57,970 bases of DNA from IMG/VR virus record IMGVR_UViG_3300045988_094645. The stretch is one strand, 5' to 3'. Shown piece after piece: positions 32,576 to 44,300 of this stretch (its first letter is position 1; every line of letters begins with the position of its first letter). The notes under the pieces are model-generated. The model worked only from the letters and a program-made list of their open reading frames with translations. It had not been told where the DNA came from and made no database searches. This stretch comes from a virus. The translations under genes and the position numbers were made by a program.

Positions 32576-35500
32576 GTGGCTAATAAAAGATTAAACTATT
32601 AGATTGGGTTTACCGCTGACGCGAGTCAGCTAAAAACCTCTGTTAATGAAGTTATAAATAGTTTATAGAAATTAGGCAATTAGCCATCTATTTCTAGTGA
32701 ACTTCAGTAGGCATCTTTGGCGGCCCTTGAATTGAGCCGTAATCTTTAGATGGCTACTAATGGAAATTCAGGTAAGTTAGATTTGACTGCTTTTAATGAT
32801 AGTTTAGTAAAAAGCGGAAAGACTTTAACAGACTATTATAATCAACTAAGCAAACTGGGAATTTAGGGGCAAGAAACATTCTTAAATCTTTCTCAGGCTA
32901 TTATGGCGGCGGAAACTCCGTTAATCAGAACTAATAAGTTAATGTCTGATTTGTGGATTACAATGAAAAATACGGTTCGTTGGTAGATTACAGCAAGCAC
33001 TTTATAGGGTTTTATTGGCTCTTTAGAGACAGCTTATGGTTATGCAAAAGATTTAAATGAATCTCTGACAAACATTCGTATAGTTACTGAAAATTCTGCC
33101 GAGGATATGGCTGTTTTTGCTAAGTAGGCTAACGAAGCAGCTAAGGCATTGAGTACAACTACAGTAGATTATACTGACGCAGCTCTGATTTACTATCAGT
33201 AGGGCCTTACTGAGTAGGAAGTTTTAGATAGAACTGAAACTACTATAAAAATGGCAAACGCCGCGGGTGTTAGCGCTTAGACTGCATCTGACTAGTTAAC
33301 TGCGGTATGGAATAACTTCTATGATGGAAGTAAAAGTCTTGAGTATTATGCAGACGTCATGGTGCGCTTAGGTGCAGATACTGCATCAAGCTCTGATGAA
33401 ATTTCAGAAGGTATCTAGCAGTTTGCCGCAGTTGCAGAGACGGTAGGTTTGAGTTATGAGTATGCCGCGTCTGCGCTTGCTACTGTTACTGCTACAACTC
33501 GTGAATCTGCGAATACTGTAGGTACTGCATTTAGAACATTATTTGCACGTATTCAGGGCTTAAATCTTGGAGAAACACTTGATGATGGAACTACTCTAAA
33601 TAAATATTCTTAGGCTCTTGATAAAGTTGGAATTAACATCTTTGACGTTAATGGAGAAATCAAGACTATGGATACTTTATTAGATGAAATGGGAGAGAAA
33701 TGGGAAACTCTATCTAATGATCAATAGATTGCATTAGCACAGACTGTAGCTGGAGTACGTCAATATACTCGTCTTATTGCTCTTATGGATAACTGGGATT
33801 TCTTCTAGGAAAATTTGGAGAGTTCTTATGGAGCAGAAGGATCTCTACAAGAACAAGCAGATATTTATGCTGAATCTTGGGAGGCGGCAAGAGATAGAGT
33901 AAGAGCATCCGCGGAAGATATTTATGATAGTTTAATAAATCCTGATTTTTATATTGGGGTAGATGATGTTCTTAGTCCTATTTTAAGTACAACTGCTGAT
34001 ATTATTGATGGTTTAGGCGGAATGTCTGGCGTTTTAGCAACAACTGCTTTACTGATGAATAAGGCTTTTGGTGATAAGATTGCGCAAGGAATGAGAGATA
34101 TTGCTTCTAATCTTGGTATTATCGGATAGAGAGAAAAGGATAGAGCGCAAACTTTGAGAACTGAAGCCGCATAGATGGCTGATATTATCGCGAAATCCGC
34201 ACTTGATAATACTATTTAGGGATAGATGGTAAATACTCAAGCTTAGATTGTTTAGCTTGAAGGAGAAGCGTCCGCTGCGGCCACACAACTATCTGAGCGC
34301 TAGGCTGGTATTTTACAACAAGATTTAGATAGAGTAAAGGTTTTATAGACATAGGTTAATTTAATTGGGTAGTAGGTTAGCAAATCAGATGAACTTATTA
34401 CAGCTTATACAAATAGTTTGTCTGAGCGTTTAGTTCCCAATAAAAAATGGAAGGATAATCTACTATCGGCGCTTGTGTTAGAAGATGAAAATAAATTTTC
34501 TTTTTATGAGGACATAGAAACAGAAATTCTCTATAGTTCAAAGACAAATTAGCAAGCCCTTTAGAGTTTAATTGACAAATTAAAAGTGGCGAGCGTAAGT
34601 CTTTCTAAGTTTTAGCAAGTATAGAAATTAGTTGGTTCTGGAACCAATGAAATCTCTCAAGAAACTATTAATTTAGTAAGAAGCCTAAATCTTTTTGAAG
34701 GTGCTCAAGATGCAACAAATTAGGAGATAATAGAATATCTTACTACCTCTTAGTAGTTTTAGGAAGCATTAAAAGGGGCAGAATCAGACGTTGCTGCATT
34801 AAATAGAGTTATTACTTCTTTAGGTGATGGTTCTGTTAAATTTAAAAATGATCTAAGTGGTCTTGTAGCAGCTTTTAAGAATAATGAAATTAGTGCTGAG
34901 GCTTTTAGATAGGGATTAGAATTATTACAGTAGAAAACAGAAGAAATTAGTGAGGGGTTAAAGAATAACAGATATGCTACTTTAGACTGGGCTGAGACAT
35001 TGGTTAAAGTAGGAACCACTTTATCGCAAGTTACAATGGGAATGACAAGTATTAATTCCATGTTCTCTACTTTTACAAATTCTGTGAAAGAGGGAGAGTT
35101 TACTGTTGAAGATTTTACAGTTATTCTTACTAACTTTGGAATGTTATTACCAACAATCTCTACCTTGTTTAAAAAGCAGGCATTACAAAATAGTTTAACT
35201 GCAATATCGTATTTAACAGTTGGAGCTTCAGCTAAAACTGCGGCTGCTGGTATTACTACTGTTGGTGCGGCTATCTCAACTGCTTTACCACTTATTGGGT
35301 TAATCACTTTGGGAGTAACCTTACTTGTTAATGTTATTTCTCTCATTATTGTTACGGAAGAAGAGGCTAGAGAAAAAATATCTAGTGCTACCTAGGCTTA
35401 TGAGGATTAGAAATCTGCATTAGAATCTTTAAATTCTGAATTATAGACAACGAAAGATAGAATAGAAGAATTAAATAATTAGGATTCTTTAAGTATAGTC

Positions 35501-41326: not shown

Positions 41327-44300
41327 ATGAATACAGCTTCTGAATCTATCTTTTAGACAATAGATATTCTTGTTGATAAAGCACTATCAAAATTAACTTA
41401 TGATAAAACTGTTTCAGCAGAGATCAATAGTATAGTTAATCTTGATACTGGAGAATATAAAGTTAAATATTCTGGTAATATAGTATCTGCTTTTTCTGAT
41501 GATGTAAAAAAGCAATATAAAGTAGGAGATACTGTATACGTTACCATACCTCAAGATGACTTGTCAGCAAGGAAAAGAATAGTATGTAAAACAAGTGAAT
41601 AGTCGCTATCATACGGAGAGATGCTATCTTTATCTAATTCAATAATAGAGAAAAGCCCAACCTTTGATACCATGTATGAATATAATAAAAGTGCGGAAAG
41701 GGGCGTTGTAGCTGGAGCGCCTGCCGATAGTAATCTAAGTCAATAGATTATTTATGACGGTACTGAAGAGGGCTATCATGGATTATTCCAACAATACGCA
41801 AATAATAACGAACTTATTAGAATCAAGGCTTCTTTCTTGACTACTTTCCATTGTGAACATACAAAAGGAAATTATGGTTTAGATATATAGTTTTTCACAA
41901 AAAGTGGGGATATAGTTTCTTATAAACTAGATCTAAGTTCTTTTAATGGAGATCCATATCGCTTTTAGGTCTACAGCCCGCAATCTGTAGTCATAAAAAC
42001 TCAAAAAAATTATTTAACTGGACTTAAACAAATTAAATTATTTGAAGAAAACTTTGTCTATGATCGTTATGTAGAATCTGGTATAGTTACAGATAAAGAG
42101 AATAGAACTGTACCTAATATTTTTGTAAAGGATATAGAGATTCAGTTTGTTGAACAGAAAGATTTAACTGATAATTTATATTATTTAGATATATCGGCCC
42201 CGCGAGGAAACTCATTCACTAACGAGATCTCTTCTCTTGATTTGGTTGGTAGATTGATTTATTAGGGCGATAATATTATGAACGAAGAAACCTGTGAATG
42301 TAAGTGGTTTGAGAGGGATGTAAGTGTTTTACTAGGGAGCGATTTGTACGACAAAAATGCTGGGGTAGGATGGGCTCCCGTCACAGCGTCCGAGAGCAAT
42401 ACGTTGACACTTAATGCTGAATAGGTTGAGTATCAAAAGTAGTATAAATTGATCGTTGTATATAATGATAGCGTGACATTAAGCGCAGAAACAACGATTT
42501 ATAACTTAACAAGTGACTATAGTTTTGAGTTAGATCAAACTACGGTTGGTGAAGATATTATCATTCAAATTTAGAACAATGCAGATGATACTGTTTTAAT
42601 TGGAGATTGGTATATGCTTTATCCAGATGGAAGTTATACCGCAGTAGGGTTAAAACAAAATTCTATCACTGTAACTAATTTACTGCTATATTCTTCTGTT
42701 ACTTTTGTTTGCGGCGTTTATAATAAAGAGCATAGCTAGATTATTTGTGTATTAGAACATCTTGTCACAAATAGTTCTTCCGAGGAAGATGTTACAATCA
42801 CTTATAATGGAGAAGATACCTTTAGATATGATGCAAACGGAGATATAACAATAGAAGATGCTGAGAAGGAACGAACTCTTTAGGTTGTTTTAACTTGGAA
42901 AGATGGAGTTGGAACTTCTTATAAGGTTGAATGGATTGGCCCAGATGGGAAAAATATCACTAATTCAAGATATAATCCTAGTGAATCTATGATAGAAAAT
43001 CTTTGGGTTGACAATAGCAATATTTTACATTATACTATTAAATAGAAGTATAAAGTTAATTTTAATAATAATACTATCTTAGTTCGTATAGTTACTATGG
43101 ATGAATAGAGATACTCTTTCTAGAAAGAGATTTTATTCTTAAAAGATGGAGATTAGGGTACTAATGGTACGACCTATGTTACTGCAATTCGTCCTTTTGA
43201 TGAAAATACTGGTCTAAAACTTTCTGGCCTGGTTCCTCTTATCTATAGGGATAACTCATGGCAAAATACTTTACCTTTAAGATGTTACGTATATAAAGAT
43301 GGAGAGTTAATTAACGACAATGGAAACTATACATTGACCTATAAATGGACAGGGGTTAATGTTAATATTGGGGATAGCACCTTGGATGACCGCAAGATAA
43401 TTAGTGGAGATAATCAACTGGTATCTACTCCCATTGGCGGTTATGTGAAAGTACAAGTTACTATTAATGATAATAAGAATAATAGAACTTATGATATTTA
43501 TAGTAATTATCCTATTGATGTCGCTGTTAATTTTTCTGATCAAGAAATAGAGAGTATTGATATTAGCTCTATTCCTTCTTATATTAAATATACTGCTTCT
43601 GGAGTAAATCCCTAGTTCTATAGCAATAATATTGAATTTATTGTCAATGAAGTTGATTAGAGCAAGAATATTACTTCTATTGTGGAAGAAATACTAACAA
43701 TAGAAGAATAGGATGGTCTTTACTACTTAGAACCAGCTTCTAGCTTTGTTTTTGAAGATAATAGTATTGCATTGTTAAAGTGTGAATATGAGGGAAAATG
43801 TATTTATCATCCAATTATCTTGTATCTTGACACCTATGGAAATGAATTAATTAATGGGTGGGATGGTACATAGCTTGAAATTGATGAAGAAAATGGTCAG
43901 TATATTTTGGCACCGTAGATAGGTGCAGGAGAAAAAGATAGTTTTAATCGTTTTACTGGCGTAGTAATGGGAAAAGATAGTGTTTAGTCTAAAATCGGTT
44001 TGTATGGATATAAAGCGGGGATTAATACCTTTGGCTTAATGGAAGATGGTACAGCCTTCTTTGGATCCAAAACTGGTGGTGGATAGATCATTATTGATGG
44101 TACCTCTGCCGAAATTTATGGAGGAGGAAATTCTTCTGGTGAAGGTGGAGACGCATCCAATGGAATGACTATTACGCTAGCAGATCTTAAAGCTGATGGC
44201 TCTACAGAGGCTATTAAAATCGGCGGTGGCGTTTTTACAGTAAAATATAATGGTACTGTAAGTGCGGCCAATGCTGAAATTTCAGGAACTATTTATGCTT

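Follow-up and report, generated by a model that had tools for sequence, protein, structure and literature searches.

Stop-codon recoding concentrated in structural and lysis genes has been described in many gut phage clades (Borges et al., bioRxiv 10.1101/2021.08.26.457843), and Peters et al. 2022 (PMC9523058) report its verification by metaproteomics for crAss-like phages. In phAss-1, TAG is read as glutamine, three suppressor tRNA-CTA genes and 36 tRNAs are present, and the genes of the terminase large subunit (TerL) and the tape measure protein (TMP) are recoded (Babkin et al. 2023, PMC10607447). Its authors typed the suppressor tRNA as Gln with tRNAscan-SE and proposed a genus Phassvirus with three members sharing 80-86% identity (PMC10607447). 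Here we analyse the TMP gene at 32576-41275 of the viral record IMGVR_UViG_3300045988_094645 from IMG/VR, a stretch of 57,970 nucleotides that we call the window and to which all positions refer unless another contig is named. We conclude with high confidence that this is a single 2,899-residue TMP gene without a frameshift, carried by an SPbeta-like human-gut phage of ~147 kb that translates TAG as glutamine (genetic code 15).

Among deposited genomes, the nearest to this phage is phAss-1 (OQ749652), which NCBI places in a 'Caudoviricetes code 15 clade'. The phAss-1 group and this phage have in common the human gut, a siphovirus-like type, a genome of ~136-147 kb, TAG as glutamine and suppressor tRNA-CTA within large tRNA sets. 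With phAss-1 itself it also shares recoded TMP and TerL genes, a major capsid gene essentially free of TAG and a giant TMP, which in phAss-1 has 3,155 codons (stop to stop) and 110 TAGs by our count. However, identity to phAss-1 is only 51% for the capsid protein and 33% for the TMP core, and megablast finds no match between the two. Because of this distant relation, the phage does not belong to the same genus and is a member of the wider group rather than of Phassvirus. Late-gene recoding is also heavier here, as TAG accounts for 11 of the 27 portal glutamine codons but for 1 of 34 in phAss-1. Like the recoded crAss-like, Lak and Agate phages (the last a clade of ~154 kb infecting Firmicutes), this phage has in-frame stops concentrated in structural and late genes, a phage-encoded suppressor tRNA and probably a standard-code host; unlike recoded gut phages in general, it shows no release factor or tRNA synthetase gene in the genome parts examined.

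The virion module relates the phage to SPbeta. Its relatives carry the YonB, YomU_Tube, YomW, YomV and YomO families, SPbeta yomI is a tblastn homolog of the TMP gene, and SPbeta-like and EF1-like Enterococcus phages have the same virion module (YonB, YomU tube, YomW, YomV, YomO). SPbeta YomI (2,285 aa) and the TMP of Enterococcus VRE9_3 (2,673 aa) are homologous long TP901-type TMPs encoded in the standard code. A megablast search of GenBank phages with 25 kb of the virion block returned no match, and no record turned up for the first ORF of the window. Contigs of the same species reach 101-147 kb, and the window is thus part of a genome; some contigs of 290-294 kb, about twice that length, were taken as dimers on size alone. 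The species is new and very common, while recoding of this kind has already been described for its phage group.

The gene and its start are laid out as follows.

32576-41275, + strand: TMP gene, GTG start, TAA stop, 2,899 sense codons in a single frame, 103 of them TAG
32559-32566, + strand: Shine-Dalgarno-like AAAGGAGG, 9 nt 5' of the GTG at 32576, as read from the sequence

Under translation table 11, the longest + strand open reading frame (ORF) inside 32576-41275 encodes only 131 aa. When TAG is taken as sense, a single frame stays open from 32561 to the TAA at 41273-41275, and its first start codon is the GTG at 32576, a start supported by homology to relatives that begins at residue 3-4. 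Over 32400-41400 this frame holds 107 TAGs and has TAA or TGA only upstream of 32561, while stops of every kind number 243 and 412 in the two other frames. Counted in frame, the gene itself contains 103 TAGs among its 2,899 codons and neither TAA nor TGA, against ~170 TAA and TGA codons expected from base composition (the probability of none is ~7e-77). The recoding event in the TMP gene is the reassignment of TAG to glutamine at these 103 positions, an anomaly on which a previous sequence-only reading of the window was silent.

The same pattern extends over the genes around it.

16181-54513, + strand: late (virion) gene block with the same recoding, 302 in-frame TAGs against 292 CAA and CAG codons

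One greedy gene caller was run under four codes: base coverage was lowest under the standard code (50%) and highest when TAG was read as sense (93%), with TGA as sense giving 58% and TAA as sense 74%. In the late block, coding coverage of the + strand rises from 45% under the standard code to 98.5% with TAG as sense. Interruption by TAG alone is also seen in 26 late genes, and among essential genes the in-frame TAGs number 103 in the TMP, 14 in TerL and 11 in the portal gene. A FolD-like gene at 14976-15806 is open only if seven TAGs are read through, so the recoding is not confined to virion genes. In TAG density, the gene at 30435-31871 (478 aa), between the tube and YomO-like genes, ranks second in the late block, with 25 TAGs making up 71% of its glutamine codons; it is without a PHROG family match.

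Comparison with homologs points to the amino acid. At the TAG positions of the TMP N-terminus, glutamine fills 37% of the cells in an alignment of 120 homologs, about six-fold the background of 6.4%, and the conserved TAG columns hold glutamine in 116/119, 119/120, 97/120 and 96/119 homologs (81-99%). For comparison within the species, ten independent assemblies from different samples were chosen for an identical upstream 176-aa protein, and the TMP start could be anchored in nine of them (all but L107). In these nine the TMP is uninterrupted, at 98.9-99.98% identity over the ORF; its length is 2,899 codons except in one assembly with 2,932, the TAG count is 101-106, and TAA and TGA are absent. 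The 2,932- and 2,899-codon alleles may be tail-length variants within the species, the longer allele predicting a tail longer by ~5 nm. In eight columns TAG alternates with another codon among the nine strains, namely with CAG or CAA in seven and with AAG in one. TAG makes up 103 of the 203 glutamine codons of the TMP; the TAGs are evenly spread, with the first at codon 9 and most in the long middle part. Judged from alignments and polymorphism, TAG is glutamine in this phage and acts as a synonym of the ordinary glutamine codons.

A tRNA scan of the window found no tRNA, and scans of the window, L001-L006, L011-L017 and L075 found no suppressor tRNA. We then walked outward in four hops along same-species contigs, starting from IMG/VR contig 3300045988_093451, which shares with the left arm of the window a segment of 99.4% identity. 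The walk led to an array of more than 30 tRNA genes that includes one with anticodon CUA (L085:12782-12856), ~26 kb outside the window on the side of position 1. This tRNA scores 61.6 bits against the Rfam tRNA family; its 1-72 pair is mismatched (U1/U72) and its position 73 is G (G73). One of the phAss-1 tRNA-Sup-CTA genes matches it at 83% identity, and four relatives have nearly identical copies. By sequence, the phage thus encodes its own CUA suppressor tRNA, as seen on a same-species contig and in the four relatives. The 'Pyl' label that ARAGORN gives to this tRNA reflects the anticodon alone. A search of the window with Rfam returned no RNA family, nor was a ribozyme detected next to the suppressor tRNA.

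Two further elements of the tRNA array were recorded. A full-length ROOL RNA (RF03087, 350 bits) lies at L084:1206-1801, between tRNA-Gln(UUG) and tRNA-Gln(CUG). A 120-nt tRNA-like gene at L084:2068-2187 has perfect acceptor, D and T arms (Rfam 50.9 bits), but its anticodon region is enlarged by ~43-47 nucleotides that contain a stable hairpin, and ARAGORN misses the gene at default settings. It was considered as a disguised suppressor and set aside, the ARAGORN intron model giving a weak tRNA-Ser(GCU).

We then propose a model for the translation of the gene. During infection, the phage tRNA(CUA) would be charged through the host glutamine pathway and would decode the TAGs in the TMP and most other virion genes, with TAA and TGA staying stop codons. 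The demand on such a system is severe: by computation, a read-through of 95% per codon gives 0.5% full-length TMP, 99% gives 36%, and at least 97.8% is needed for a yield of 10%. With 103 TAGs in one gene, TAG termination must therefore be almost abolished in the infected cell.

Several points weigh against this account. The suppressor tRNA was located on another contig of the same species, and the window's own sequence is without a tRNA. No release-factor gene or other silencer of TAG termination was found in ~2.3 Mb of loci including all of phAss-1, and the class-I release factor motif GGQ[HNA][VI][NQ] is absent from the 116 sequences searched, again with the whole of phAss-1 among them. The amino acid at TAG is read from alignments and polymorphism; the less conserved TAG columns often hold E, K or N in homologs, and one of the strain polymorphisms is TAG/AAG. 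Tail length, wall binding by an SH3-like domain and the role of the C-terminal module, discussed below, are likewise things that we infer.

The alternative that survives best, which we nevertheless consider improbable, is that the host itself reads TAG as sense, so that the phage matches the host code and no phage-driven code switch takes place. The missing release-factor or other switch gene in the loci searched would agree with this. However, the phage has its own tRNA(CUA) in an array of more than 30 tRNAs, and some of its genes (capsid-like, tube and several left-arm genes) contain no TAG at all, which would be odd for an ordinary host codon. In addition, the hosts of such phages are predicted in published surveys to be Firmicutes or Bacteroidetes that use the standard code (bioRxiv 10.1101/2021.08.26.457843).

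Slightly less probable again is that TAG is sense but specifies another amino acid, such as pyrrolysine, glutamate or lysine. The ARAGORN label, the rank of glutamate as the second commonest residue at TAG columns (17%) and the single TAG/AAG polymorphism could be read in this way. Amidation of Glu-tRNA-Gln is a route by which tRNA-Gln is charged, and mis-incorporation of glutamate is conceivable if the host uses it. Against this stand the share of glutamine in the most conserved columns (81-99%) and the seven of eight intraspecies alternations with CAG or CAA, which are one transition away. In the tRNA itself, the ordinary cloverleaf, the weak 1-72 pair and G73 recall tRNA-Gln, and it also resembles the phAss-1 suppressor. 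TAG to glutamine has also been verified by metaproteomics in other gut phages (PMC9523058).

We give almost no credence to the idea that the TAGs are true nonsense mutations in the decaying TMP pseudogene of a defective prophage: the standard code does split the gene into more than 100 pieces, but the frame is interrupted by TAG alone, the probability of finding no TAA or TGA in 2,899 codons excludes a decayed pseudogene, the pattern recurs in the 26 late genes with TAG falling on conserved glutamines, the ORF is kept in nine samples with TAG/CAG polymorphism, and 2,357 blocks of the assembly collection have an index entry for one marker protein of the phage.

The sequence-only reading had instead placed a -1 frame change ~50 nt before the stop, explained as a sequencing indel or a genuine recoding site, with the body frame running on without a stop into the next gene.

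41216-41226, + strand: claimed frame-change site, GATGCTATTCG, codons GAT GCT ATT CG., ordinary in-frame sequence with no frameshift
40907-41272, + strand: conserved TMP C-terminal module, DTGGYTG...LHxKExVLN...DT.N.L...R...FPN...EI..A...L...Q.A.R.., followed by the stop codon

The claim rests on one mis-transcribed base. The string that had been quoted, 'GATGCATTCG', is absent from the entire window; the actual sequence at 41216 has one more T, so the T at 41221 had been dropped. The start codon, the GDEVIY...GWLKES segment near the C-terminus and the IRSLADD... tail at 41222-41272 all lie in frame 2, and the natural ending that had been recognized, ...QDAIRSLADDATQWANRRKE-TAA, is indeed present at 41222-41275 in the body frame. 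Since these landmarks share one frame and the body frame ends at the TAA at 41273-41275, the frame change was a reading slip. The next gene starts at the ATG at 41327 with its own AAAGGAGG before it, at an equivalent position in the gene calls of the ten assemblies.

No in-frame X_XXY_YYZ slippery heptamer occurs at 41216-41226 or within 240 nt of the site, the nearest being TTTAAAT at 40975, and no second ORF overlapping the TMP 3' end and open only in the -1 frame was found, the tail sharing the body frame. Indel heterogeneity near 41215-41225 had also been raised; with assemblies as a proxy for read pile-ups, nine independent ones show 0-1 mismatches to the window in the last 86 nt and keep the same frame. 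Programmed -1 frameshifts of the G/GT type in tail assembly chaperone genes, upstream of TMP genes, are well known, and such a shift would be the recoding event to expect in this neighbourhood. It sits, however, in the upstream chaperone gene, whereas the claimed site is at the TMP 3' end. A G/GT-type frameshift in the upstream gene at 31935-32465 was considered and rejected, as stops in all frames follow the gene and no extension ORF is visible.

The suggested comparison with homologous TMPs gave a clear picture. When the last 242 residues were searched against a database, 73 of 82 matches extended to the end of the query, and most of the listed hit proteins terminate 0-7 residues from that point. 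Aligned from the DTGGYTG motif onwards, 29 homologs share 20 invariant columns, and the distant relatives L001-L003 end in ...ERVEFP..EI..A..SL...QWA.R.K-stop, in frame with their bodies. The ending is thus, by homology, the normal conserved C-terminus of the TMP family, contiguous with the body. Together, with a single frame from start to stop and only the chaperone-gene frameshifts as context in its favour, a genuine -1 frame change, either an indel or a programmed event yielding two C-terminal variants, is at the very bottom of what we would entertain. The TMP genes of L001 and L003 are broken elsewhere, in assemblies of 2.4-3.6x coverage, and these breaks were taken as probable assembly errors.

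Three further features could be placed along the 2,899-residue protein of ~320 kDa.

33011-33922, + strand: TP901-type tape measure core, with TIGR01760 at aa 146-449 and PF10145 at aa 186-393
35240-35365, + strand: hydrophobic membrane-segment-like stretch, ~aa 889-930, holding the sole 19-residue Kyte-Doolittle windows above 1.6; its function is inferred
40718-40891, + strand: SH3-like beta-barrel domain (GDEVIY...GWLKES), aa 2715-2772, predicted with AlphaFold2

The proposal of a giant TMP of ~2,900 aa with a TP901-type core is borne out, PF10145 (E=1.7e-28, 100.3 bits against a cut-off of 33.2) and TIGR01760 (E=2.3e-37, 128.9 bits against 28.8) both matching this core. A Ser/Gly-rich linker separates the long middle part from the SH3-like segment. 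This C-terminal segment is present as described, but its coordinates are 40718-40891 and not 40700-40894, the end of the latter taking in the in-frame TAG at 40892-40894. The exact TAG-free stretch served as input for structure prediction, and the AlphaFold2 model of aa 2715-2772 has five strands and a mean pLDDT of 82. Its best Foldseek superpositions are with the SH3b domains of the NlpC/P60 endopeptidases 2hbw and 2evr (TM 0.60) and with the Clostridium phage endolysin 4krt, none at E<=0.001. Pfam and NCBIfam gave no match in the C-terminal 242 aa, and PDB sequence searches with two C-terminal profiles returned coiled-coil and designed-protein noise only. Where this TMP has the SH3-like domain, homologs have LysM, PG_binding_1 or CW_7 in the same slot, 4-28 residues before the invariant GGYTG motif. 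From the model and this exchange, the SH3-like domain is probably a swappable wall-binding (peptidoglycan-binding) module. No enzymatic domain was detected in the TMP with Pfam, in contrast to the transglycosylase label that yomI bears in some records.

The protein would act as a normal tail-length ruler, consisting of the N-terminal TP901-type core, the hydrophobic segment and a long, presumably helical middle. At 0.14-0.15 nm per residue, the middle part would set a tail of roughly 400-435 nm, an estimate from sequence alone, and the conserved C-terminal module presumably sits in the tail tip. The giant siphovirus Tsamsa of Bacillus anthracis has a 3,123-aa TMP and a measured tail of 440 nm (PMC3903500), evidence that such large TMPs occur and scale with the length of the tail. 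Tsamsa, a standard-code phage, is likened to this one by TMP size; calibrated by this analogy, the expectation that a TMP of this length predicts a tail of several hundred nm is supported.

The central ~3.9 kb of the gene (34123-38025) is mosaic relative to L107 and L112, strains with an identical upstream protein; the TMP ends of these strains align at 79-98% identity, and the middle gives no blastn alignment.

The gene is flanked by hairpins on both sides.

32504-32548, + strand: terminator-like bidirectional hairpin of 14 bp (32504-32538) followed by a T-rich tract, between the YomO-like gene and the TMP gene
41278-41292, + strand: short GC hairpin GGGGAGAAAATCTCC, just 3' of the TAA stop

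SPbeta likewise has annotated stem-loops on both sides of yomI. The module order is a YomU_Tube homolog (28983-30377), the YomO-like gene (31935-32465), the TMP gene and large tail proteins of 1,306 and 929 aa, which places the TMP in the expected position of a tail module, with tube and chaperone-like genes ahead of it and distal tail and baseplate genes behind it. Immediately 5' of the YomO-like gene, at 31874-31902, is a sigma-70 site that fits the consensus at 12 of 12 positions (TTGACA, 17 nt, TATAAT); promoter-like sites are not in excess over the region as a whole.

Five genes inside the recoded late block are without TAG, at 23479-24168, 24188-25240, 25281-25838, 28983-30377 and 31935-32465. 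TAG accounts for 0 of 13 glutamine codons in the capsid-like gene (P~1e-4), 0 of 15 in the tail tube gene (P~2e-5) and 0 of 8 in 23479-24168, and the two other genes have too few glutamine codons for a test (P=0.12 and 0.49). The same genes in relatives, including phAss-1, have 0-1 TAG. The two 2-kb windows of highest G+C in the late block contain the capsid-like and tube genes, whose products are presumably among the most abundant virion proteins. It is tempting to speculate, as a tentative and rather doubtful idea, that the recoding goes beyond a timing switch of late genes and splits virion genes into two tiers, in which abundant proteins avoid TAG and low-copy ones use it for about half of their glutamines.

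Outside the late block, positions 6000-14000 have a G+C content of 0.41-0.49 against 0.32-0.36 elsewhere and contain several TAG-free - strand genes; a homolog of microbial-type PARG at 13653-14417 is among the TAG-free - strand genes. An HNH endonuclease is encoded at 3669-4283. At the other end of the window, a diversity-generating retroelement occupies 55656-57969 on the - strand. It comprises a reverse transcriptase (55656-56873; PF00078, YMDD motif), a template repeat (57182-57246), a possible accessory gene (57315-57809) and a variable repeat (57905-57969) that is 77% identical to the template, with mismatches all at template A positions (- strand). This variable repeat continues past the window edge; contigs of the same species show it within the 3' end of the gene for a 545-aa Big_3/DUF6273 protein (L004:5489-7126).

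One related code-15 phage sequence was met in a bacterial assembly. The 52-kb contig L002 (GCA_023665325.1, JAMPED010000012.1) belongs to a metagenome-assembled genome labelled Acetobacter sp. and is annotated with the standard code. Its TMP of 3,106 codons and 16 TAGs is split into many small ORFs, and the contig is mis-annotated and probably mis-binned.

Our results bear on how such phages take over translation. A near-full switch-off of TAG termination by RF1 is implied, and since no known factor for it was found in the sequence examined, the mechanism may be new. If the two tiers of virion genes are true, TAG load could serve to adjust protein stoichiometry, or it could tie the low-copy assembly proteins strictly to the suppressor. 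The interchangeable SH3-like, LysM, PG_binding_1 and CW_7 domains suggest a modular engagement of the cell wall by the tails of Gram-positive phages. Standard-code annotation fragments the TMP gene and most of the genome of a very common human-gut phage. With 103 reassigned stops that need a read-through of ~98-99% per codon, the TMP is a natural reporter of the extent to which termination is taken over by such phages.

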